In this document: positions 12,742-43,513 of the stretch, in pieces | Numbering within the stretch: the first letter of the stretch is position 1 | How the letters are laid out: the number at the start of each line of letters is the position of its first letter | Assembly: GCA_964407865.1 (NCBI GenBank) | Contig: CAYOXC010000002.1 | Span: 38,978 to 102,977, forward strand | Source of the DNA: an uncultured Gammaproteobacteria bacterium | GTDB taxonomy: Bacteria > Patescibacteriota > Patescibacteriia > Magasanikbacterales > GWA2-37-8 | Direction: 5' to 3' | Length of the DNA: 64,000 nt | Notes under the pieces: model-generated | The model's database searches: none | The model's input: only the letters and a program-made list of their open reading frames with translations | What the model was told of the DNA's origin: nothing | Position numbers and translations under genes: made by a program

Positions 12742-12828
12742 GCGAAAAATTGGAAGGGTGGCTGAGTGGTCTAAAGCGACAGTCTTGAAAACTGTTGTGT
12801 CAGAAATGGCACCGTGGGTTCGAATCCC
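12742..12828 (+). tRNA. tRNA-Ser (UGA), long variable arm
   Basis: Acceptor GGAAGGG/CCCTTCC, anticodon loop CUUGAAA, T-arm GTGGG-TTCGAAT-CCCAC. Confidence 0.85.
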
Positions 12829-13158
12829 ACCCCTTCCGCATAAAAATCGTGTCCCATTTATGGGGTTAGATTTTTACGGAATGCGTGGTGATGAAGAACC
12901 CTGATGGTTCGTTCGGCGCAGTGAGTGAGAAAAGAATAAATTTATTTATTCTTTCGAGCGAGCAAGCCGACTCTGCGCGAAGCGCAGTATCCCACCCCTT
13001 CCGCATAAAAATCGTGTCCCATTTATGGGGTTAGATTTTTACGGAATGCGTGGTGATGAAGAACCCTGATGGTTCGTTCGGCGCAGTGAGTGAGAAAAGA
13101 ATAAATTTATTTATTCTTTCGAGCGAGCAAGCCGACTCTGCGCGAAGCGCAGTATCCC
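12829..13158. repeat. Two tandem 165-bp direct repeats, each ending in a 15-nt copy of the tRNA-Ser(UGA) 3' end
   Basis: ATCCCACCCCTTCCG recurs at 12814-12828 (tRNA), 12979-12993 and 13144-13158. The units are identical. Confidence 0.9.
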
Positions 13159-33500: not shown

Positions 33501-34076
33501 TTAATAATTTTCGCACCAGAGTTCAAAATGCGCTTGCGGATGATCGCATGAAGGGCATTTTTTCGGCGCCTGGTTGCTTTCATGCAAATAACCGCAGTTG
33601 CGGCATTTCCAGATAATTTTATCTCCGCGAACAAACACTTTACCGGACTCTAAATTATCATATAGTTTGCGGTAGCGGTTTTCGTGCGCGTTTTCAACTT
33701 TGGCGATTGAGCGAAAAACATCGGCTATTTCTGAAAACCCTTCTTCTTCAGCTACTTGGGCAAATTCCGGATAGAGCTTTGTCCACTCCAGATTCTCACC
33801 TTCGGCCGCTTCTTTTAAATTTTCTAGTGTAGTGCTAATTTTCCCAGCCGGATAGGTGGCTGTGATTTCAACCATTCTGCCTTCCAAAAATTTAAAGAAT
33901 CTTTTAGCATGCTCTTTTTCGTTAAGAGCAGTCTCTAAGAAGATACCGCTGATTTGTTCCAAGCCTTCTTTTTTAGCTACGCTGGCAAAGTAGTCATAGC
34001 GATTTCTTGCTTGGGATTCTCCAGCGAACGCTTTGAGCAAATTTTGCTCGGTTTTTGAACCATTTAATTCGGGCAT
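33501..34076 (-). CDS. Rubrerythrin
   Basis: Ferritin-like di-iron ExxH motifs plus a C-terminal rubredoxin CxxC..CxxC. Confidence 0.85.
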
Positions 34077-34106
34077 AAGATTTAATTTATTATAGATAAA
34101 TGCGGT

Positions 34107-35054
34107 TTATGCGTTAATTTTATTTTTTTCAAGATACATTTCATATTCTGAATATTTTTCTCCCAAGATATTGGCGACAATCTGGAGGCATAATCTGCCA
34201 GTCTGAAAATTTATGTCTTTGTCCGGCTCCCCTTCAACTAAATCCATGGATTTACTCACTTGATTTTGTCCAAGTTTGCGGGCGATAAAATTTATTTCTC
34301 TAAATGTTAATCCGCCTTGAGTTGGCTCAGTAGCGCCTGGGGCGAACAACTTGTCAATCACATCGATATCCAGGCTAATATGAAGATGGTCTGAATTTTT
34401 TGTCACAATATCCATTGCTTCATTGAAACATTTTACAATACCTTTCTCATCAATATCATCCATGGTGATTATGTTAACACCCCATTTTTTAATATTTTCC
34501 ATCTCGCCCTTTTCAATATACCTTGCGCCAAAGATGCAGATATTTTGCGGTTTGATAAAATTACCATCCATTACTTTGACCAAAGATTTGTCGCCATGAC
34601 CTAGAATGACAGCCACAGGCATTCCATATATCCATCCGGTTTCTGTTGTTTCGGGCGTATGAATATCTGAATGAGCGTCAATCCATAGCACACCGAGGTT
34701 CGGTCGTTTTTTTAAGATACCGGCAATACTACCGATGCTTGAGCTGTGGTCTCCGCCAATAATCAGTGGGAAGTCGTTGCTATCTTCAATTGAGTTGCTG
34801 ACAATATTTTTAAGCCGGATATTAAATTCGCTGACAATATCCGCATATTTTGTAATTTCATTTTTAGAGTTAGTTTTTTGTTGATCTTTTTCTCGCACTT
34901 CTGCTATTTCAGTCCATCCAATATTTAAATCATTTAGCATTTTTTTAATTCCGGGATGTGAAACTCCCGATTCAGTCAGGTAGTCAGGGAACAAGTTTGT
35001 TTTAGAGTGAATATAGCCGTGTTTGGACAAGGCTTTTATTATTTTTACATTCAT
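34107..35054 (-). CDS. Arginase/agmatinase/formiminoglutamase family hydrolase
   Basis: GGDHS, DAHSD and SLDIDVID Mn-binding motifs. Confidence 0.8.
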   Translation of the reverse strand: MNVKIIKALSKHGYIHSKTNLFPDYLTESGVSHPGIKKMLNDLNIGWTEIAEVREKDQQKTNSKNEITKYADIVSEFNIRLKNIVSNSIEDSNDFPLIIGGDHSSSIGSIAGILKKRPNLGVLWIDAHSDIHTPETTETGWIYGMPVAVILGHGDKSLVKVMDGNFIKPQNICIFGARYIEKGEMENIKKWGVNIITMDDIDEKGIVKCFNEAMDIVTKNSDHLHISLDIDVIDKLFAPGATEPTQGGLTFREINFIARKLGQNQVSKSMDLVEGEPDKDINFQTGRLCLQIVANILGEKYSEYEMYLEKNKINA

Positions 35055-35138
35055 ATTTAGTGCAATCTATCAAAAACAATTCAAACCGATAGCTATTGTA
35101 GCATAATTTTGTATTTTTACCAGTCTTGCATACCCTTG

Positions 35139-35172
35139 ACATTTTGGCTAAAATGTGCTATATTTTTATGTC
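35139..35172 (+). promoter_or_regulatory. Sigma70-like promoter (TTGACA-17-TATATT) for the GC-rich orphan
   Basis: CTTGACATTTTGGCTAAAATGTGCTATATTTTTA. Confidence 0.5.
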
Positions 35173-35195
35173 AGTTCTTTAAAAAAGGAGGAAAA

Positions 35196-35555
35196 ATGGC
35201 AGATGTGACGGGACCTGTGAGTACGTTGCCGGGTTCGAGTCGCGCCTTGCGCGAGGGCGCGCAGTGCGATGACTGTGGGAAGAAGCCCGCCACCCACCGC
35301 GTCCAGGGCGAGACCGATTCGTTCGGCGCTGAGTGGGCCGATCTGTGCGACGACTGCTACGTCGTCGAGCGCGAGCGCCGCCGCAAGGACTGCGCCGGCG
35401 AGTGCGACTGGTGCGGCAAGCACTCGGAGTCGCGCATCTGGACGCGTGACTACGACGAGGGTACGCACGGCCCGACCTACCGCGTCTGCAAGTCCTGCTA
35501 CGACAAGCAGCAGAAGGCGCTCGAGGCCGAGCTCCACTACTACTACCGCTACTAG
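35196..35555 (+). CDS. Cys-rich (4x CxxC) small protein, strongly GC-rich; putative zinc-ribbon orphan
   Basis: AGGAGG RBS. Codons dominated by GCC/CGC/GAC. CDDCG, CDDCY, CDWCG and CKSCY motifs. Confidence 0.6.
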   Translation: MADVTGPVSTLPGSSRALREGAQCDDCGKKPATHRVQGETDSFGAEWADLCDDCYVVERERRRKDCAGECDWCGKHSESRIWTRDYDEGTHGPTYRVCKSCYDKQQKALEAELHYYYRY

Positions 35556-35593
35556 CCTCGCAGTGTTGTCTCGCCGTTTTTTCTCACCACCTA

Positions 35594-35637
35594 CCGCACT
35601 AAACCATCGTTCGCGATGGAACCAGTGCGGTTTTTTT
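35594..35637 (+). terminator. Long hairpin terminator
   Basis: CCGCACT ... AGTGCGG stem with an inner CCATCG/CGATGG stem, then T7. Confidence 0.65.
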
Positions 35638-35734
35638 ATCGTTATTTAAATAAACTAACGACTATTTACATAATTACTAGAATGGTATATTCTATGCGGG
35701 CTCTTTAATTGCAACAAAAAACGAGGAGAAAAAA

Positions 35735-35977
35735 ATGAGCAAAAATTGCACCTTGGGAGATTATAGAAGATTTGTTGAAAAAAATCGGGATGCTGTTTTA
35801 AGCTGTGAGGCGGATTGCGTCATGCTTGCCTCTTTTTACAGTGCGCTGGTTGAGGAAAACAGCGCTAAGGATCCGGATGATTTGCCAGACGATCTGATAT
35901 TGGGAGAGAAAACTTCTTATATTTTCAACGCTATACAATCAGGCCATTCTTTTCTAGGTGCAGAGATAGCGCATTAG
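35735..35977 (+). CDS. Small hypothetical protein (80 aa)
   Basis: GAGGAG RBS. Bounded by terminators on both sides. Confidence 0.5.
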   Translation: MSKNCTLGDYRRFVEKNRDAVLSCEADCVMLASFYSALVEENSAKDPDDLPDDLILGEKTSYIFNAIQSGHSFLGAEIAH

Positions 35978-35998
35978 CACCTACGTTCTTTTTTCAGT

Positions 35999-36031
35999 CC
36001 GCACATCTTAATCGATGGTGCGGCTTTTTTA
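35999..36031 (+). terminator. Rho-independent terminator
   Basis: CCGCAC ... GTGCGG stem plus T6. Confidence 0.6.
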
Positions 36032-36128
36032 TTTTCACAGAACTTAATATCAATAGATTAAGTTGCTTGTATGATTACATTTTTGCTGGCCGCATGCGTA
36101 AAATCTTCAGGTTTAATATTTATAACGC

Positions 36129-36587
36129 CTAAATTATAGCAAACTTCGTTTTATTTAGGATGTTTTTTAATATTGCCAATTTATTCAATATATTCGGAAC
36201 TGTATCAATTTTTGGTTCAAAACTGTCTATTTCAGTTAACTTAACCCATTTATACTCAGAGTATTCCTCGTTTAGTACAATTTCACCTTCCATATGAATT
36301 GCGTAATAATGAGGCAAGATCATGGCGTTGCCATCCTTTTTTACGAAGGAAACATTAGTTGTAAAATAAGGAAATACTTTTATTTTGAAGTCACTGCCAA
36401 CTTCTTCGTTTTTTTCTCTTTGCAAACCATTAATTAAACTTTTATCAGTAGTTTCCATTTTTCCGCCGATAAAAGAAAAAGTTCCGTCAAAGTCAGCTTC
36501 GCCTTTTCGTTTACACAACAAGACACTGGATTCGTCTTTTGAATAAACAACAATTTTTTGGCAATATTGAAAATTGTATTTTTGCAT
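36129..36587 (-). CDS. Nudix hydrolase
   Basis: Nudix box GGKMETTDKSLINGLQREKNEEVG. Confidence 0.75.
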   Translation of the reverse strand: MQKYNFQYCQKIVVYSKDESSVLLCKRKGEADFDGTFSFIGGKMETTDKSLINGLQREKNEEVGSDFKIKVFPYFTTNVSFVKKDGNAMILPHYYAIHMEGEIVLNEEYSEYKWVKLTEIDSFEPKIDTVPNILNKLAILKNILNKTKFAII

Positions 36588-36592
36588 ATATT

Positions 36593-37258
36593 TTATTTAG
36601 TAGCTAGGACAACCCAGCGTCCAATTATATCTAATTCCAAATTTACATCCCTGAATTTTGAAAACAATTTTTGAGCCTCTTCTTTTGTAAAAAAACTATG
36701 AGGCAATCCCTTTTCTGGGCCTGATAATGGGGCAAAAGTACCTTCGGCAATTTCTTCATGATCTTTGAAGGTGTTCCATTTCTTACTACTTTTAAAATCA
36801 GGCACAGTAATAAAGATTTTTCCATTTTCACTGATTGCCTCGTAAATTCTATTGATCAAATTTTGAACTTGTTCTTTCGTCCCATGGTGGATTGTAGAAA
36901 TAGAAATGACCAAATCATATTTATTCTTTGGAATGTCAAACTCAAACATGTTTACACAAGTAATAATAGAATCATTACCTAATGTTTTTTTGGTCATTTC
37001 GACTGCGGTTTCGCTTGAATCAATACCGTCAGTTTTAAATCCACCAGCTTGTAGAATTTTCAAGTACTTACCAGTGCCACATCCAATATCTAAAACACGT
37101 TTAATTTCAAAATTTGATTGGCTCAAAAATTGTTTAAATAACGGATGAATTTCTTCCGAAAGGGTTGCCCAAGCGTCACCGCCCTTTTGATAATTTTTAT
37201 AAATATTGTCCCAGATTGTCATAACATTAATGTTTCTATTAGGGTAAAAAGTTTTCAT
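36593..37258 (-). CDS. Class I SAM-dependent methyltransferase
   Basis: VLDIGCGTGKY motif I. A 5-bp gap to the Nudix gene. Confidence 0.75.
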   Translation of the reverse strand: MKTFYPNRNINVMTIWDNIYKNYQKGGDAWATLSEEIHPLFKQFLSQSNFEIKRVLDIGCGTGKYLKILQAGGFKTDGIDSSETAVEMTKKTLGNDSIITCVNMFEFDIPKNKYDLVISISTIHHGTKEQVQNLINRIYEAISENGKIFITVPDFKSSKKWNTFKDHEEIAEGTFAPLSGPEKGLPHSFFTKEEAQKLFSKFRDVNLELDIIGRWVVLATK

Positions 37259-37259
37259 T

Positions 37260-37901
37260 TTACTTTCTTTGTTTCATCTGCCCATCTAATCCACCATAGC
37301 TTATTTCGGGTAATTGTAATTCGCTAAATTGAGGATCAGCTTGTTTTGGAATTGGTCCGGTCACATCTTTCATTTTGGGGCTTCCCGGTTTGACTGGTTC
37401 CTGTCTCAGTACTTGCATATGTATGTCCCCACCTTCAAAACCAAGCGTGACATGAAAATCTTTGGGTGGTAGTCCGGCTTTTTCTCGGAATGCTTGCAGT
37501 GCTGGAATATCGAGAGCGACGAAAGCTGTTTTTTTGACTTTATCAACTTCGCGCATTTGATATTGAGATGAGGTGCCGTCAATAAAACCTATTCCTTTTA
37601 CAACAATACCCTCACCACGCTGAATTTGTTCGTTAATTTGCTGAAGTTCGGCAAGTGTTGCATCATCAAGTGTGTCTAGAATTTTTCTTTCGGTCGGACC
37701 TATTATAGTGAGGTGAAATCCGTCTGGGCGAGGTTCGAGATTTGCGCCTGTAGATTCTCTCACTGATTGTAGTACCGAGTTAAAATCTCCAGTAATTTCC
37801 ACTTCGAGTGTTTGCATATCGGCAAGTCTCTCGTGTGTTAATTCAGGCGATCTTGGTTGTTCTACGGGTGGTTCGTAGCCACCCATTTCTGGATTACTCA
37901 T
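37260..37901 (-). CDS. 2H phosphoesterase superfamily protein (LigT / cyclic phosphodiesterase-like)
   Basis: Two H-x-T-x motifs (HLTI, HVTL) about 95 aa apart. A 1-bp gap to the MTase gene. Confidence 0.55.
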   Translation of the reverse strand: MSNPEMGGYEPPVEQPRSPELTHERLADMQTLEVEITGDFNSVLQSVRESTGANLEPRPDGFHLTIIGPTERKILDTLDDATLAELQQINEQIQRGEGIVVKGIGFIDGTSSQYQMREVDKVKKTAFVALDIPALQAFREKAGLPPKDFHVTLGFEGGDIHMQVLRQEPVKPGSPKMKDVTGPIPKQADPQFSELQLPEISYGGLDGQMKQRK

Positions 37902-38020
37902 AGAATTTTGTTAGTTAAATTTATAATAAATATCTTCCTTATTTTCCCCTATATAAAAGAGAAAATCAAATTATATTTATTTTAGTGAAGCGCGGGCGAT
38001 AGCCCGAAAAGAAAAAGCAT

Positions 38021-38057
38021 ATTTCATATAACGTTTCCTAGTATGCGAAGTTGCGCC
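38021..38057. repeat. Palindromic-element family member A (half-site ATTTCATATAACGTTTCCTAGTATGCGAAGTTGCGCC)
   Basis: Matches the consensus shared with sites B, C, D and F. Preceded by a GGGC-GATA-GCCC hairpin at 37992-38003. Confidence 0.7.
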
Positions 38058-38332
38058 ACTGTTTTCAGCACAATTTTTCGTCTTATTATAGGGTTATTTT
38101 AATACTTCAGACCTTCATTTTCAAGAAGCGCAATTTGGGTGGAGCAAACAACAATTTTCTTTTTGATTTCAATAATCAAGTCCTTTTCTGAAAGCCAATT
38201 GGGCCGTCGTTGGATTGAAAATAGCTTATTCTAGCAGGGATATACACATAACTCTTGACAGGGAGATATTTTTGTGTTATTATCCTGTGTTCGCAAGGAC
38301 TAACAACAAAGCCAAAAGAAAGGGAGGAGAAG

Positions 38333-38743
38333 ATGCAAGCTCACCTAGTGGACGATTTGCTGGTGAGGGCTTTTGGGCGCAACCGAGTGAGCCAGACGAG
38401 AGATGGGCGCTCCGAAGTCCCAAACTGTAACTACCCGCTCTTCTGTGCGAGGATCCAGTTGGAGGATGCTGCCAGCATGGAGGTCAGTTTCGGGTTCCAT
38501 CACCCGGCACTATCGCTGTATTCCGTCCCGTGCTGGAATGTAGGGTGCTACATCCCCGGTGGGAACGGCATCTCTATCGTGATGATGGAGGATGTGAAAG
38601 AGTGCGATGGTATGGACGCGTTACAACGATGGGTAGCCGTAGCTGCGACGTTGAAGACGAGACACATTCGGCAGCTGACAGAATTGTCGCCCTTCGTCGC
38701 GACGTTCGAGCAATTCGTGGGGGTTGTCGAGGGCGCCCACTGA
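38333..38743 (+). CDS. GC-rich hypothetical protein (136 aa)
   Basis: GGGAGGAG RBS. The start is taken at the internal ATG of ORF 38255-38743. GC is well above the genome background. Confidence 0.45.
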   Translation: MQAHLVDDLLVRAFGRNRVSQTRDGRSEVPNCNYPLFCARIQLEDAASMEVSFGFHHPALSLYSVPCWNVGCYIPGGNGISIVMMEDVKECDGMDALQRWVAVAATLKTRHIRQLTELSPFVATFEQFVGVVEGAH

Positions 38744-39011
38744 CCCCAGCTCCTTTACGTTGGAACCGCCGCAACTCATCACCGTCTGTGTGGAGAGAAG
38801 CGGCGGTTCCACACAGATACTTTGTAGAAATTGAGAGGCCCAATTGGCTTTCAGAAAAGGACAATTCAAAATCAAAAAGAAAATTGTTGTTTGCGTAACC
38901 GCACACTCGGTGTTGTACGACAGTTCCGACGGGTAAACAGTTAAAAGTTCGTTTCAAAGACGTGCTTTTTTGTTTGCAAAACCTTTCAATTCTCCTTAAA
39001 TACTAGTCGGA

Positions 39012-39118
39012 ATTTCATATAACGTTAGGGATATACGAAGTTTTTCTGGAATGACAGTGGAAGAAAAATTTGGGTGAGGGGCGAGCCGAGCCCCGAACCG
39101 TATATCCCTTGTTATACG
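39012..39118. repeat. Palindromic-element family member B (complete). M arm is ATTTCATATAACGTTAGGGATATACGAAGTT; M' arm is CGAACCGTATATCCCTTGTTATACG.
   Basis: TATAAC/GTTATA and GGGATATACG/CGTATATCCC inverted pairs with unequal spacers. Internal GGGGC-GAGCCGA-GCCCC hairpin. Confidence 0.8.
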
Positions 39119-39180
39119 CCCCGACGACTGAAAGGAGGAGAGCGCAGCGTGGTCGAGCGAAACTAAGTGGAGCGAAGAAG

Positions 39181-39194
39181 TTGCACCCTAGCCC
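39181..39194. repeat. Left 14-bp perfect inverted repeat (TTGCACCCTAGCCC) bracketing the membrane-protein gene
   Basis: Its reverse complement GGGCTAGGGTGCAA is at 39982-39995. Confidence 0.8.
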
Positions 39195-39937
39195 GAAACT
39201 TCACTTTTTTTTGTGCTATCAAAATTAATAAAAAATATTACTGATACAACTGTAAAGTATGCCAACAAGAAATCTGTAAAACTATCTAAAAGAATTTCAA
39301 AAATTGATATTACAAAATTTTCAGGAAGAAATCCTAGGATAATTCCTTCTACAAACCCAATGCTTAAAGAAGCTATGAGTGTTAAGATTCCAAAAATTAG
39401 AGAATATCCTAAGACTTTCCACCATCTACCCCTAACGATACTTTTAGAATAATCTAATGCATTCTTTCCAGATTTGTCATGGAGTATTACAACATATATC
39501 ACAAATATCCAATATACATAATATATCACTCCGGGAACGATTAGTAATAATGTTAGCCCTAACAAAAATATGCCTAATATTATATTGGTCCCTATTGCGG
39601 CAGGCCATCTGGATAATGATTTTTTAAGAGCTTCTTTAAAATTTATGGTTTTACCATCTATTTTCTGTTTCACTATGTAAGCAATTGCCATAGTTGCAAT
39701 TATTCCGATAAGCCCCTCTAAAATCTGGATTATTTTCATATAGATTCTAAATCCCTGTATTCCACCCATCTGTTCTAGTAATGCATCAAATGGCACAAAA
39801 AACAAAATAATATTAATAGGAATATAGATAGCCAAAGTTACAAGTAATATTAACTGAAACTTTTGTATAAATTTCTTCCACGATTCTGAAAGAATTTGTC
39901 CGATTGAGTATTCTTTTTTATAGATTTCTTGGTTCAT
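39188..39937 (-). CDS. Polytopic membrane protein (DUF975 / glycerophosphodiesterase-membrane-domain-like); paralog of 61360-62121
   Basis: Shares the SGRWWK(I/V)L motif and TM layout with the 61360 ORF. Confidence 0.55.
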   Translation of the reverse strand: MNQEIYKKEYSIGQILSESWKKFIQKFQLILLVTLAIYIPINIILFFVPFDALLEQMGGIQGFRIYMKIIQILEGLIGIIATMAIAYIVKQKIDGKTINFKEALKKSLSRWPAAIGTNIILGIFLLGLTLLLIVPGVIYYVYWIFVIYVVILHDKSGKNALDYSKSIVRGRWWKVLGYSLIFGILTLIASLSIGFVEGIILGFLPENFVISIFEILLDSFTDFLLAYFTVVSVIFFINFDSTKKSEVSG

Positions 39938-39981
39938 ATTTTTTATTAATGTTAATGGTTATATAAAGTTTATCTATTTAA

Positions 39982-39995
39982 GGGCTAGGGTGCAA
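39982..39995. repeat. Right 14-bp perfect inverted repeat (GGGCTAGGGTGCAA)
   Basis: Exact reverse complement of 39181-39194. Confidence 0.8.
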
Positions 39996-40000
39996 TTGCA

Positions 40001-40068
40001 CAACGTTTCGCGATATCCGACTTTTCGTAGAAATGTGGCTTTAGCCTTTAAGGATATCGCGTGTTAGG
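40001..40068. repeat. Palindromic-element family member F (AACGTTTCGCGATATCC ... GGATATCGCGTGTTAGG)
   Basis: AACGTT core and ATATCC/GGATAT inverted arms; flanked by two GGCTTTAGCC copies. Confidence 0.6.
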
Positions 40069-40197
40069 CAAGGCTTTAGCCCTTGAGTTTTCTTTTTAAA
40101 AATTATTTTGCGTCGTCGGATTGACACAAAACCTTTTATATGCTTATATTACAATACGTTCACGACCAAATCAATCATTCAATACAGGAGGTGTGAT

Positions 40198-40437
40198 ATG
40201 ACATTCAATCGTGCGGTACATATGTATGGTGATAAGTTGCAACCGTATGCCATATCAATGTGTGTTCTTTTATTTGGAACAGGCTGGATATGCGGGAAAT
40301 ATTGGGAAATGGGCTTTGGCAATATTTTCCCTCGCGTATTGGCTCTTTTCATCGTTGTTCATTTCATCGACGCAATCGTCAAAAGTGCAATCTTCGCCAA
40401 AGCCCATTTCAGGCTCACATTAACTTGTAAGGACTAG
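40198..40437 (+). CDS. Small membrane protein (80 aa)
   Basis: AGGAGG RBS before the internal ATG of ORF 40108-40437. Two TM helices. A terminator follows. Confidence 0.5.
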   Translation: MTFNRAVHMYGDKLQPYAISMCVLLFGTGWICGKYWEMGFGNIFPRVLALFIVVHFIDAIVKSAIFAKAHFRLTLTCKD

Positions 40438-40464
40438 GGGTTGAAGTTTGCCGGCATTCTCGTG

Positions 40465-40495
40465 GGTCACCGGAAGTATCGGTGACCTTTTTTAT
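40465..40495 (+). terminator. Rho-independent terminator
   Basis: GGTCACCG-GAAGTAT-CGGTGACC stem plus T6. Confidence 0.7.
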
Positions 40496-40528
40496 TTACT
40501 CAAGCAAAAAATAATTTTTTAAAAGAAA

Positions 40529-40601
40529 ATTTCGCCTAACGTTTAGGAATATCAGAAGTTGCGCCTGTGTTTATTGGCTAAAACTTCAAATATCCGCTAT
40601 C
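40529..40601. repeat. Palindromic-element family member C (ATTTCGCCTAACGTTTAGGAATATCAGAAGTTGCGCC ... AACTTCAAATATCCGCTATC)
   Basis: GGAATATCAGAAGTT / AACTTCAAATATCC inverted arms; CCTAACGTT core. Confidence 0.75.
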
Positions 40602-40740
40602 TAAATTATATCACTAAACAATGATTATCGTCAGCGCAATTTGGGAGAAAAAAATTTGCATACCTTGAATATAATTGAGCAAATTTTTTGAACCTGATAT
40701 TCTTTGTTATCTGATGTAAAAATTTTTTAATTCACTTTTA

Positions 40741-41547
40741 TCAAATAGTGTTAGATTTTATTATCTCCAATAACTTAGCATGTAGAGCCGGAGACGTTGC
40801 AAGAAAAGTAAAATTGTCTTGTGGTCGAGAAAGGGCATTTGAATAATCAATAGCATTTCCGAAAAAATCAGTGTAAATTCCACCTGCTTCCTCGATTATT
40901 ATTTGTTGGGCGACATTATCCCATATTTTGCTGGTGCGATTTAAAAAAGCGCCATAATTTCCTCGTGCTACCATCGCAATATCAAAGACGCTATTGCTCG
41001 TTCGCAGGTTTCTGATGTTTAAAACTATTTCGGCCAAAAGCGCGCACTCGTCTCGCGTAAATTTTGGATTTTCCTGGTGACCATCAATTCCGTAGGCTAC
41101 AAGCATTTTTTTCAAATCGCTTTCCTTGGCGACACTGATTTTTTCGGAATTACAATATGCACCTTGCCCTTTCTCGGCCACATAAATTTCGGAAAAGCTG
41201 GGCAAGGCTAGACCGCCCGCAATCGGAATGCCATCTTTTAATAATCCAAGCATCGTTCCATATAGCGGCGTTCCGTTGGCAAAGTTGCTGGTACCATCAA
41301 TCGGATCAATCACCCAAGTGAAATTGGAACCGTTATCAATAACGCCTGCCTCTTCATCGATGATATTATGCTCTGGAAAACTGCCCTTGATTTTCTTAAT
41401 CAACAAAGTTCCAATTTCAATGTCAGTTTCAGTGAGAACCTGATTGTTGTCATCTTCTTTGGTGGTGCCAGCAACTTTGCCAAAACTTTTTCTTGCAACG
41501 TCGGAGGCTTCTTTCAAAGATTGCGTTATAAAATTCTTATATTCCAT
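40741..41547 (-). CDS. Inositol monophosphatase / FBPase family protein
   Basis: WVIDPIDGTSNF signature and downstream metal-binding Asp residues. Confidence 0.8.
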   Translation of the reverse strand: MEYKNFITQSLKEASDVARKSFGKVAGTTKEDDNNQVLTETDIEIGTLLIKKIKGSFPEHNIIDEEAGVIDNGSNFTWVIDPIDGTSNFANGTPLYGTMLGLLKDGIPIAGGLALPSFSEIYVAEKGQGAYCNSEKISVAKESDLKKMLVAYGIDGHQENPKFTRDECALLAEIVLNIRNLRTSNSVFDIAMVARGNYGAFLNRTSKIWDNVAQQIIIEEAGGIYTDFFGNAIDYSNALSRPQDNFTFLATSPALHAKLLEIIKSNTI

Positions 41548-41573
41548 ATTAAAAAGTGAATTAAAAAATTTTT

Positions 41574-41727
41574 ATTTCAGCTAACGAATCCGAATATACG
41601 AAGTTCGGAATTTATTTTAGAGTATAATTTTGCGGAGCAATACTCTAATATAAATTTCGAATTTACGCGAGGTAGCGGAGCGAACGCGGAGCGTTAAGTC
41701 GAGCCGTATATTCGGTGTTATCGGATG
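41574..41727. repeat. Palindromic-element family member D (complete). M arm is ATTTCAGCTAACGAATCCGAATATACGAAGTTCGG; M' arm is CGAGCCGTATATTCGGTGTTATCGGATG.
   Basis: CCGAATATACG/CGTATATTCGG and TAACG.ATCCG/CGGAT.GTTAT inverted pairs; about 150 bp overall. Confidence 0.8.
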
Positions 41728-41731
41728 TAAA

Positions 41732-42106
41732 TTAAATTTTTATGCTTAAATGCTTCCGTATTTTATCATCAAGTGAGAAGTCTTTTATTTTTCCAGGCTT
41801 TTGCAATAGATTTTCAAAACCCATCTTATTATATCGCGGCACTAAATGCCAATGAACTTGTTTTGCTTCGTCCATGTATAACAGATAGACTTTTTTGACC
41901 CCCAACACTTCCAACATTGCATTCCTGATTTCATTCACTCTTTTCATTAAATACTCGTAGTTTTTTTTGGTAAGTAAATGTAAATCAGTTATTTTATCCT
42001 TCCAGACAACAACTGTATGTCCATCTACAATCGGTTCATTGGCTAAACAGGCATAAAGTTTTTCATCCTCATATATAATTGCATTTTTGTATGGCTTTGG
42101 AAGCAT
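41732..42106 (-). CDS. HIT family (histidine triad-like) hydrolase
   Basis: VHWHLVPR HIT-like motif near the C-terminus. Confidence 0.6.
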   Translation of the reverse strand: MLPKPYKNAIIYEDEKLYACLANEPIVDGHTVVVWKDKITDLHLLTKKNYEYLMKRVNEIRNAMLEVLGVKKVYLLYMDEAKQVHWHLVPRYNKMGFENLLQKPGKIKDFSLDDKIRKHLSIKI

Positions 42107-42209
42107 AAAAATTTAATTTATTCCCGATAACTACTGATAAACGAACTTGTTGTTTTTTTGGCTTAAAACCTCTAAAATATAGGGGTTAATTTTAATTCAT
42201 AGAGGGGGT

Positions 42210-43052
42210 ATGAATGAAAGTCATCGCTTTCCCAGCCAGGATCCGATGGTTAAATTGCGACAAGAGATGAAACTACGCAATTTTAGCCAAAAAACCATCA
42301 AGAGTTACCTGTATTATATTGGCGATTGCCTTAAAAAGTCAAATAAACAAGCGCGCATGATCAGCGGTAGCGATGTGCGCAACTATCTTGAGAGTTTGGC
42401 TGATTCCGGCATGTCTTCTTCGACATTAAATATCGCGCATAGCGCCCTTCGATTTTATTTTCAAATTATTTTGCGTCGGAAGTTTTTTTCTGATATTCCG
42501 CGGGCGTGCAAAGAAAAACATTTGCCTGCCGTATTATCCAAAGAAGAAGTGGTAAAAATGGTTTTGTCACTAAAAAATCCAAAGCATAACTGCATTTTAT
42601 CTTTATTGTATGGCACAGGGGTTAGGGTGAGCGAACTAACCCATATTAAAATGCGAGATATTGATTTTGATAGGAGTGTACTGCGCGTATTTCAGGGTAA
42701 GGGCAAGAAAGACCGGTTCACACTTTTGCCGAAATCGCTTAGAGAGGTTTTGTTAAAACAAAGAAATTTAAAAAAACCTGGTGATTATTTATTTACAAAT
42801 GGTCGTGGCGGGCGATTGACAGAGGCGACAATCCAGAAGATTGCGAGGTTAGCCGCAAAGCGAGCTGGTATTCAAAAAAATGTTACACCTCATACATTGC
42901 GGCACAGTTTTGCTACGCATTTGCTTGAAAATGGTACAGATATCAGGTATATTCAAGAATTATTAGGGCATGCCAAACTTCAAACCACGCAGATATATAC
43001 TCATGTGGCAAATAATGATTTAAAACATATTACCAGTCCGTTAGATTTATGA
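42210..43052 (+). CDS. Tyrosine site-specific recombinase (XerC/XerD/phage-integrase family), 280 aa
   Basis: N-terminal SAM-like core-binding domain. Catalytic R (GVRVSEL), K (GKGKKDR), HxxR (HTLRHSF), H (LLGH) and Y (IYTHV). Confidence 0.85.
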   Translation: MNESHRFPSQDPMVKLRQEMKLRNFSQKTIKSYLYYIGDCLKKSNKQARMISGSDVRNYLESLADSGMSSSTLNIAHSALRFYFQIILRRKFFSDIPRACKEKHLPAVLSKEEVVKMVLSLKNPKHNCILSLLYGTGVRVSELTHIKMRDIDFDRSVLRVFQGKGKKDRFTLLPKSLREVLLKQRNLKKPGDYLFTNGRGGRLTEATIQKIARLAAKRAGIQKNVTPHTLRHSFATHLLENGTDIRYIQELLGHAKLQTTQIYTHVANNDLKHITSPLDL

Positions 43053-43513
43053 AAGAAGAATTTGTTTTAGTTTTGCCGGATATAAGAAGCGCTCACAATG
43101 TTGGCGCTATGTTTAGAACTGCCGACGGCGCAGGGGTGGATAAGATATATTTGTGCGGATATACCGCCAGCCCACCTCACACTCAACTGGACAAGGTGTC
43201 TTTAGGAGCTGAAAAATGGCTGCCCTGGGAGTATTGTAAGCAAACTTGGCGGCTCCTCGCCGAACTTAAAGAAAAAGGGTATAATATAGTGGCGCTGGAG
43301 AAGACGGAAAAAAGCCGTGATTTATTCAGCTTTAAGCCAAAATTTCCCTTAGCCTTAGTGGTGGGAAATGAAAAAACCGGGGTGACAAAAAGTTTACTAA
43401 AATATTGCCAAAGCGCTGTTCATATACCGATGAAAGGAAAAAAGAGCAGTTTAAATGTCAGCGTGGCTGCAGGTGTTGCTTTATACCAATTGACGAAAAA
43501 ATCCAAAAAATAA
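43049..43513 (+). CDS. SpoU/TrmH-family RNA 2'-O-methyltransferase (TrmL-like)
   Basis: SPOUT knot motifs (VVGNEKTGV, SLNVSVAAGVALY). Overlaps the recombinase stop by 4 bp. Confidence 0.7.
   Translation: MKEEFVLVLPDIRSAHNVGAMFRTADGAGVDKIYLCGYTASPPHTQLDKVSLGAEKWLPWEYCKQTWRLLAELKEKGYNIVALEKTEKSRDLFSFKPKFPLALVVGNEKTGVTKSLLKYCQSAVHIPMKGKKSSLNVSVAAGVALYQLTKKSKK

Follow-up and report, generated by a model that had tools for sequence, protein, structure and literature searches.

A short Xer-type tyrosine recombinase adjoining an integron-like cassette array in a Patescibacteria genome

We analyzed a 64-kb stretch of Patescibacteriota DNA (contig CAYOXC010000002.1, hereafter the window, to which all coordinates refer) in silico, and describe here a gene for a 280-residue tyrosine recombinase together with the array of small gene units on its divergent side. 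The protein is probably a site-specific recombinase that runs an integron-like gene-capture array. The recombinase gene adjoins a presumed double-stranded primary site resembling attI (...TAAC|TACTGATAAACGAAC...), and five putative cassettes lie on its divergent side, each with an imperfect palindrome composed of outer boxes ATTTCnnnTAAC and GTTAnnnGATGT, a 4x1-nt internal loop, an 11-bp covarying stem, and a variable loop. In the proposed mechanism, the recombinase would cut inside TAAC, with cleavage predicted between A and C (G|TT on the cassette coding strand), circular cassettes would be inserted at the attI-like site and excised or reshuffled at the hairpin sites, and the cassette genes would be read from a promoter inside the recombinase gene. 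The junctions expected from this mechanism would be ...CCCGATAAC|GAATCCGAATATACG... and ...TTATTCCCGATAAC|GAATCCGAATATACGAAG... for circular cassettes, ...TTTCAGCTAAC|TACTGATAAACG... for a deletion, and ...ATTTCAGCTAAC|TACTGATAAACGAAC... for an empty site.

The recombinase and its adjoining site

The recombinase contains a Phage_integrase domain (Pfam, 1.4e-42) and an N-terminal SAM-like domain (Phage_int_SAM_4, PF13495, 1.1e-13). The catalytic residues R139, K164/K167 (GKGKKDR), H228-x-x-R231, H254, and Y263 are invariant in an alignment with 12 homologues (n=13). The only curated model passed by the protein is the NCBIfam equivalog NF040815 (recomb_XerA_Arch), with 250.8 bits against a cut-off of 220. 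The integron-integrase model TIGR02249 gives 237.3 against a cut-off of 265, PRK15417 gives 149 against 435, and the XerD and XerC models give 210 and 205, both far under their cut-offs. The match to TIGR02249 stays below its cut-off and is split into two stretches because the IntI insert, which lies in the middle of the model, has no counterpart in the recombinase. Among solved structures, the best sequence match is 2a3v (the Vibrio integron integrase VchIntIA; 171 bits, in two stretches), followed by archaeal XerA (160 and 151 bits) and XerD (109 bits). Residues 185-240 of VchIntIA are unmatched, with query residues 189-201 bridging the gap, and the AlphaFold model of the recombinase (pLDDT, predicted local distance difference test, 82) has only a short turn at residues 188-204. 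In a fold comparison, 2a3v and XerA tie as the closest structures (E about 3e-16). Based on these model scores and structure matches, we place the recombinase between XerA and IntI, without the additional domain that IntI proteins carry around patch III. The initial annotation of this DNA had described a 280-residue protein with the full catalytic set, an N-terminal SAM-like domain, and no IntI-specific segment, and all three descriptions agree with the results above.

The attI-like site, written onward, reads ATTCCCGATAAC|TACTGATAAACGAACTTG. The left box is present and is followed by a shorter spacer than in the hairpin elements, and the arm GATAAACGAAC resembles the inner arm of those elements (GTATGCGAAG/GTATACGAAG). 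The half-site TAAACGAACTTG has exactly one occurrence in the window (42138-42149). Allowing up to two mismatches gives 16 matches where 8.5 are expected; the word by itself is thus of little significance, and its weight comes from its conservation at the same position in relatives. The half-site AAC|TMCYKWTAWMCNAAC adjoins the recombinase gene in 13 loci, and homology between strains with identical recombinases ends exactly at AAC|, as is the case for a primary site beside an integrase gene. The degenerate half-site that had been noticed earlier in the divergent gap is thus a part of this site, with a position conserved in relatives. The gap itself, between the HIT gene (41732-42106, minus strand) and the divergent recombinase gene, spans 42107-42209 and measures 103 bp, not 104 bp as first given. 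When metagenomes were scanned for the attI-like DNA pattern, four matches were found, comprising a duplicate of the locus L002, two copies of the site and promoter without a recombinase gene, and one chance match. An attI-like half-site with an A/T-rich leader and no recombinase gene after it was seen in L094 (reverse strand, about 6531-6556) and L096 (787-812); these copies may be decayed or rearranged platforms.

Inside the recombinase gene, a match to the sigma-70 consensus resembling the integron promoter Pc faces the cassettes (Table 1). The same promoter position scores 11/12 in L001, L002, L088, and L107, with differing spacers, which together with the window makes five of ten lineages. 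This promoter may be active and drive the cassette genes, with a transcript start predicted near 42306 on the minus strand. For the recombinase gene itself, the promoter scan listed no sigma-70 promoter; an extended -10 element (TGn-TAAAAT/TATAAT) precedes the gene in most relatives, and the window copy lacks it.

Hairpin elements and cassette units

Five hairpin elements of the same plan lie on the plus strand between 38021 and 41728. Each consists of ATTTCnnnTAAC, about 4 nt, an 11-nt stem arm around GTAT, GAWGTT, and a variable loop, and then, in the second half, GAACC, the complementary stem arm, 1 nt (T), and GTTAnnnGATGT. They are attC-like imperfect palindromes with ...AAC / GTT... boxes and a conserved structure. 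Elements e1, e3, and e4 fold with z of -3.6 to -8.9 relative to shuffled sequence. Hidden Markov models (HMMs) of the left and right arms match only 38019-41731 within the window, while Rfam, which does not include the attC covariance model of IntegronFinder, was run on the window and on 37950-39150 and reported tRNAs only and no match in the array. The cassettes point away from the recombinase, except that the 79-aa open reading frame (ORF) is reversed and the fifth unit is gene-less.

The stems of the elements covary. In 22 elements from six genomes, compared with 500 shuffles, 10 of the 11 stem pairs have changed on both sides and 91% of the cells are paired. On three of five measures (paired cells, cells changed on both sides, and covariation score), none of the 500 shuffles reaches the value of the stem, and the two pair-count measures were reached by 8 and 1 of the 500. 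Slid versions of the stem have 30-48% of cells paired, compared with 80%. The asymmetry of the arm spacing is nearly constant, with 4 nt on the left and 1 nt on the right, and 17 of 19 hairpins fold better as the bottom strand relative to the cassette ORFs (mean -2.3 kcal/mol, p = 0.0025). Covariation, near-constant spacing, and strand bias together favour a folded single-strand substrate of fixed polarity, and the hairpin sites would then act in the way attC sites do.

The motifs are restricted to one clade. Homologues of the recombinase number in the thousands, the best 120 of which are 61-77% identical and come from Magasanikbacteria, Uhrbacteria, and other Patescibacteria. We compared 36 contigs encoding 11 close homologous recombinases. 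Wherever upstream DNA is present, it holds a run of divergent accessory-type genes, including Fic, HicAB, restriction-modification genes (among them a methyltransferase with a MutH-like nuclease), acetyltransferases, glyoxalase/Ble, an Apyc1-like lactamase-fold protein, a helicase-caspase fusion, and small hypothetical proteins. The arm HMMs were searched against 1.29 Mb (the window and 92 loci) at E < 0.01. They match only the window array and loci of close homologues (64-100% identical), and every match lies upstream of the recombinase, on its strand, and in one orientation. No arm motif was found in the 80 control loci of 33-48%-identical homologues from other phyla. These loci came from a profile search of contigs with protein alignment; this search was swamped by motifs that all Xer/IntI proteins share, and the homologues it returned all fell in that identity range. 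DPANN archaea encode 41-48%-identical homologues, and a scan for AAC-stem-GTT hairpins upstream of distant homologues, including those of DPANN archaea, gave no arrays, a weak negative as the scan was crude.

The ends of the cassettes define units bounded inside TAAC. For 18 elements, the 26 nt beyond each GTTA were compared with left flanks. A mean of 16.9/26 positions are complementary to the left flank of the neighbouring site on the recombinase side, against 10.7 for the in-situ left flank and 10.2 (sd 2.8) for all other left flanks; only the flank of that neighbouring site differs from background (Mann-Whitney p = 1.5e-6). Such a pattern is characteristic of circularisable units whose ends fall inside TAAC. 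On the coding strand of the cassettes this point corresponds to G|TT, the boundary also known from integron cassettes.

Cassettes are replaced at this same point between strains. Among contigs with identical recombinases in the group P0069, the sequences are 100% identical leftwards from the gene to ...AAC|TCCTGTTATACC (AAC|TCCTG) and unrelated beyond, with three different first cassettes, and L102 matches L103 apart from two added units, an insertion with AAC| as the boundary at either end. Two variants of P0067, again with identical recombinases, break at AAC|TACTGATAACC (AAC|TACTG), and two variants of P0053, likewise, break at the attI-like site (AAC|TACCTATAAGCG). In P0053, three contigs also have the two proximal cassettes in common and differ from a single nucleotide within an internal hairpin site onwards, where ...TTTAAC|, ...CATAAC|, or ...TATAAT| is followed by GTTCTCCCTATATGAGAAGT (AAC|/AAT|GTTCTCCC) with three different neighbours. 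Homologous recombination does not account for this internal divergence, which shows that exchange takes place at the cassette sites themselves. Across four independent comparisons, the break is found at an identical nucleotide position. Of the 36 contigs, 15 end 81-253 nt upstream of the ATG, contigs of 25-81 kb included, and none ends within 300 nt after the stop; the contig L108 begins exactly at AAC|. This clustering of contig ends is consistent with a branching assembly graph.

The initial annotation had regarded this protein as the prime candidate recombinase for both the palindromic-element array and a set of mini-elements at tRNA ends. For the array, the candidacy is strengthened by the clade-specific upstream motifs, the complementarity of cassette ends, and the breakpoints at AAC|, and we infer that the recombinase itself catalyses the events. 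The connection to the tRNA ends was not borne out, as the 165/166-bp units there have no arm motif and no similarity to any array. These units are perfect tandem duplications, of 166 bp at 5892-6223 (tRNA-Pro, minus strand) and 165 bp at 12824-13153 (tRNA-Ser-TGA, plus strand), each beginning with the 3′ end of a tRNA gene; a third copy, 72% identical, lies near tRNA-Ala (6446-6611). They look like tiny gene-less att-bounded insertions, with no integrase nearby.

Several further features of the arrays were observed. The loop of e5 holds an insert of 635 nt (38205-38839) with 53% GC, compared with 39.5% for the window, flanked by inverted repeats of about 60 bp; it contains a promoter-like site (TTGACA-17-TATTAT) and a 136-aa ORF (38333-38743) without a Pfam or Rfam match. 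An analogous promoter-bearing GC-rich insert occupies an element loop in L089 (7365-7887), and no similarity between these two inserts was found. Also in L089, a hicA/hicB pair (3002-3556) sits inside a hairpin-element loop, between the stem arms, and not in the usual cassette position. A gene-less mini-cassette of ~181 nt (GGGGCCGCGTGTATCC...GATGTTGCCGAAC) occurs in L102 (814-994 and 1597-1777) and in L089 (about 4040, 4840, 8255, 8968, and 9749), repeated five or more times in one array and interleaved with gene cassettes, and similar gene-less units are present in L002 and L088. An inverted-repeat pair of ATTTCTGGTAATTTRTTATTGC surrounds a small gene (160 aa and 114 aa) in the arrays of L002 (7214/7799) and L089 (4339/4794), and such genes may be a second kind of small mobile unit. 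The loop motif AATTTGGGYGRR, located shortly before the right arm (GAACC...), is found in the window at 38128-38142, 39066-39080, and 40640-40652, and in most elements of L002, L088, L089, and L091; it could be a site for an accessory protein or a part of the fold.

On the other side of the recombinase gene, the stop codon overlaps the start of the SpoU gene by four bases (ATGA). The initial annotation took this as translational coupling. The overlap is real, but it recurs only in the syntenic relative L091, which does not support a functional link. In other relatives the downstream gene is AMMECR1, UvrC, an MJ0043_C-domain protein, GatB, UvrB, Fic, an AAA ATPase, or a convergent YchF. Because the downstream gene switches between lineages, we consider the overlap incidental and SpoU a mere neighbour. 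In L091, synteny on the recombinase side covers the recombinase, SpoU, a 218/241-aa protein (p241), DJ-1, and ribonucleotide reductase (64-81% identity). Both flanks are syntenic between the two genomes, whereas the island between rubrerythrin and the recombinase is non-homologous, the entire stretch of 8-10 kb being different (window 33501-42131, L091 1-9894). In the window, recognisable hairpin sites are confined to the 4 kb adjoining the recombinase; the genes farther out (arginase-family, NUDIX, methyltransferase, and 2H phosphoesterase) may be former cassettes whose sites have been lost. Cassette 1 encodes a HIT protein with 75% identity to the product of a HIT gene in L088 (16820-17188) that is located outside the array, 6 kb downstream of the L088 recombinase, so that a housekeeping-type gene appears as a cassette in the window. 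Far from the array, TTTTTTGTATACACTTGTGTATACAAACAG occurs twice at a distance of 101 nt, as identical 30-nt copies at 614-643 and 715-744, each with the palindrome GTATACACTTGTGTATAC.

Table 1 Features of the recombinase locus and the cassette array in the window.
Feature	Position	Strand	Basis or remark
Tyrosine recombinase, 280 aa, XerA/IntI-like, without IntI extra domain	42210-43052	+	ORF, Pfam, NCBIfam, alignment, AlphaFold
attI-like site ATTCCCGATAAC|TACTGATAAACGAACTTGTTG	42120-42152	.	Putative crossover inside TAAC; cassette side ends at 42131; recombinase-side half conserved in relatives
Pc-like promoter TTGACT-18-TATAAT, 11/12	42313-42342	-	Consensus match inside recombinase ORF, facing cassettes
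Cassette 1: HIT gene (coding sequence, CDS, 41732-42106) and hairpin site	41586-42131	-	Own ends inverse complements, 23/26 positions
attC-like element e1 (ATTTCAGCTAAC-GAAT-CCGAATATACG ... CGTATATTCGG-T-GTTATCGGATGT)	41574-41728	.	Folding z -6.4/-8.9; arm HMMs
Cassette 2: inositol monophosphatase-family gene (CDS 40741-41547) and hairpin site	40541-41585	-	Own-end match 23/26
attC-like element e2	40529-40717	.	Arm HMMs
Cassette 3: 79-aa membrane-like ORF 40198-40437 (+)	40005-40540	.	Own promoter-like site 40121-40150, terminator-like hairpin 40464-40488
attC-like element e3 (GCACAAC-GTTT-CGCGATATCC ... GGATATCGCG-T-GTTAGGC)	39993-40074	.	Ends on the right in GTTAGGC, the canonical integron core
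Cassette 4: 249-aa membrane protein (CDS 39188-39937, listed DUF7847)	39024-40004	-	ORF, domain match
attC-like element e4	39012-39122	.	Folding, arm HMMs
attC-like element e5, arms 38021-38056 and 38885-38923	38021-38923	.	Loop holds GC-rich insert
Distal array boundary GGGCGATAGCCC-GAAAAGAAAAAG-CATATTTCATATAAC	37990-38032	.	Same kind of sequence directly left of attI-like site in L003
SpoU/TrmH-family methyltransferase, 154 aa	43049-43513	+	SpoU_methylase 2.4e-38; conserved core flank, outside cassette system

Competing explanations

Some observations weigh against an integron-like role of the recombinase. According to Messier and Roy (2001, cited in PMC9668308), integron integrases need the additional domain missing here for their activity. 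An identity of 60-77% across several candidate phyla fits a vertically inherited housekeeping enzyme better than a typical mobile-element integrase. The hexamers of the Pc-like promoter overlap conserved codons, and the other five of the ten lineages have a weaker match or none. As for the folded substrate, complementarity was one of the grounds on which partner arms were picked for the covariation test, the strand asymmetry of the hairpins could owe something to GC skew, and cargo in hairpin loops of 500-900 nt (e5, and hicAB in L089) is awkward for a folded single strand. The difference between L102 and L103 could come from homologous recombination between two mini-cassette copies. The evidence is entirely computational, and no circular junctions were seen.

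The strongest alternative, which we nevertheless consider unlikely, is that the protein is a housekeeping Xer (a chromosome dimer resolvase), that the adjoining site is its dif as in xerS/difSL, and that the cassettes exploit it in the manner of IMEX (integrative mobile elements exploiting Xer), by means of a folded hairpin at dif as with CTX phage; the array would then be a by-product of the Xer system. This explanation could also hold alongside an integron-like role. The protein passes the XerA equivalog model, shows the conservation of a core gene, with 60-77% identity across Magasanikbacteria, Uhrbacteria, and Parcubacteria, and its gene heads core operons. Such proteins have been grouped as a 'Cand' Xer-related subgroup of presumed stand-ins for Xer (PMC8138268), the attI-like site has two roughly dyad-symmetric arms (ATTTCATATA / AGTTCGTTTA), and no second tyrosine recombinase was found within the 64-kb window. 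The position of the site speaks against a dif. The GC skew keeps its sign across the site in the window (+0.096 for 1-33.5 kb and +0.115 for 42.1-64 kb), in L107 (+0.155/+0.134), and in L088 (-0.05/-0.075), with 20-64 kb visible per genome; therefore the site is not at a skew switch, as a site at the replication terminus would be. Moreover, genes diverge from the site instead of converging, the Pc-like promoter match faces the array, and breakpoints at internal hairpin sites together with a dedicated family of structured sites correspond to integron behaviour and not to simple IMEX stacking. We also considered whether the sites themselves are dif sequences. The left arm is like the XerD arm of E. 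coli dif, but the second arm and the spacing do not fit, the sites form paired palindromes, and there is no skew switch, and this identity was rejected.

It is quite improbable that the elements are instead pairs of inverted duplex core sites, comparable to Acinetobacter pdif modules or invertible switches, with modules exchanged via cointegrates or loops inverted and no folded single strand involved. Half of an element, taken alone, does look like a duplex core site, with the arms ATTTCnnnTAA and (reverse complement) ACWTCnnYATA flanking a central region; site orientation alternates along the array, and some loops carry a promoter or a hicAB module, as invertible segments do. However, the arm spacing is 4 nt in the left half and 1 nt in the right half, a consistent difference of 3 nt, and therefore the halves are not equivalent duplex sites. 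Most loops are 20-100 nt, which is too short for duplex inversion, and the strong stem covariation and the better folding of one strand in 17 of 19 elements also disagree with a duplex scheme. In addition, all elements have one orientation relative to the recombinase, which a symmetric duplex scheme would not require.

Finally, the palindromes could be terminators or REP (repetitive extragenic palindromic)-like repeats in an island shaped by ordinary homologous or illegitimate recombination without the recombinase, as hairpins are common between convergent or serially transcribed genes and one element has a terminator-like hairpin (41589-41609), but such a coincidence is extremely improbable given that the motifs occur nowhere else in the window or in the 80 control loci, that breakpoints share one nucleotide in four independent comparisons, that cassette ends are complementary over 25-30 nt, and that a conserved half-site adjoins the recombinase in 13 loci.

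Comparison with known systems

Integrons are defined by an IntI with an additional domain, and integron finders search for that domain. Judged by five sequence criteria, the system described here appears to work like an integron, yet it fails the defining integrase feature. We do not count the array as an integron proper, because its integrase is without the IntI additional domain. No description of cassette arrays or integron-like arrays in bacteria of the candidate phyla radiation (CPR) was found in the literature searched. We tentatively suggest, with somewhat less than even confidence, that CPR bacteria carry a widespread undescribed class of integrons run by a 'Cand' Xer-type recombinase lacking the extra domain. 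If so, current finders would miss a whole class of arrays, at best calling them integrase-less clusters. An Xer enzyme with an adjoining site colonised by hairpin cassettes could be the ancestral state of integrons, and the same recombinase may double as the chromosome dimer resolvase. A cassette platform run by an Xer-like enzyme without the extra domain would provide a concrete intermediate between Xer/dif and integrons, making the origin of integrons testable, and biochemists could compare IntI with a small, simple enzyme and its site. In the biology of CPR bacteria, the array identifies a defined hotspot where reduced genomes exchange accessory and defence-type genes, and it also explains the recurrent assembly breaks at the recombinase locus.

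The closest resemblance is to integrons, especially sedentary chromosomal ones. In both, the integrase gene is divergent from mostly promoterless, co-oriented cassettes, and the primary site adjoins the integrase gene; the Pc-like match inside the recombinase gene would correspond to the integron promoter that faces the cassettes. The cassette palindromes of integrons have ...YAAC / GTTR... outer boxes, and here e3 has GTTAGGC and the neighbouring e2 has GCCTAAC. Structure is kept more than sequence, boundaries lie at G|TT, content is hypervariable between strains, and the cargo includes toxin-antitoxin, acetyltransferase, and Fic genes. Unlike integrons, the array here has a 280-aa integrase without the additional domain, in a CPR host and conserved like a core gene. 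Its outer boxes of 12 nt have a distinct consensus, there is a 4x1 internal loop where extrahelical bases have been described in integrons, the ends are complementary over 25-30 nt, and some cargo lies inside the hairpin loop.

With archaeal XerA/dif and the bacterial single-recombinase systems XerS/difSL (PMC1914069) and XerH/difH, the system shares a short single tyrosine recombinase, whose best curated HMM is XerA and for which XerA structures tie for the best fold. In the xerS/difSL system, the recombination site adjoins the xerS gene. The site described here likewise immediately adjoins its recombinase gene. Unlike the sites of these systems, it heads a cassette array, is not at a GC-skew switch, and does not follow the 28-bp dif consensus.

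Acinetobacter pdif modules are found on plasmids, use XerC and XerD with 28-bp sites, and are not known to have covarying hairpin stems or a dedicated primary site beside a recombinase gene. They are similar to the present array in that genes are bounded by Xer-type sites of alternating orientation and that modules appear in different contexts. They differ from it in that here there is one recombinase gene, another site consensus, and covarying stems. Among IMEX, CTX phage integrates at dif1 via a folded single-stranded hairpin (PMC3442271). Similarly, an Xer-type enzyme here would pair a duplex chromosomal site with an incoming hairpin site, and insertions would stack beside the site. Unlike IMEX, the units here hold a single gene or none and have no replication or phage functions; their sites belong to a single family, and recombination also takes place at internal sites.

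Archaeal integrons have been reported from 75 genomes, with 539 attC sites and 6 IntI, most arrays being without a detectable IntI (Ghaly et al. 2022, PMC9668308). The archaeal IntIs are reported to have the additional domain (PMC9668308), which distinguishes them from the recombinase described here. In our simple hairpin scan, no arrays were found beside the DPANN homologues sampled. The archaeal integrons and clusters of attC sites lacking integron integrases (CALINs) are like the present system in being cassette arrays of small-genome uncultivated lineages, and short XerA-like enzymes could serve the integrase-less archaeal attC clusters.

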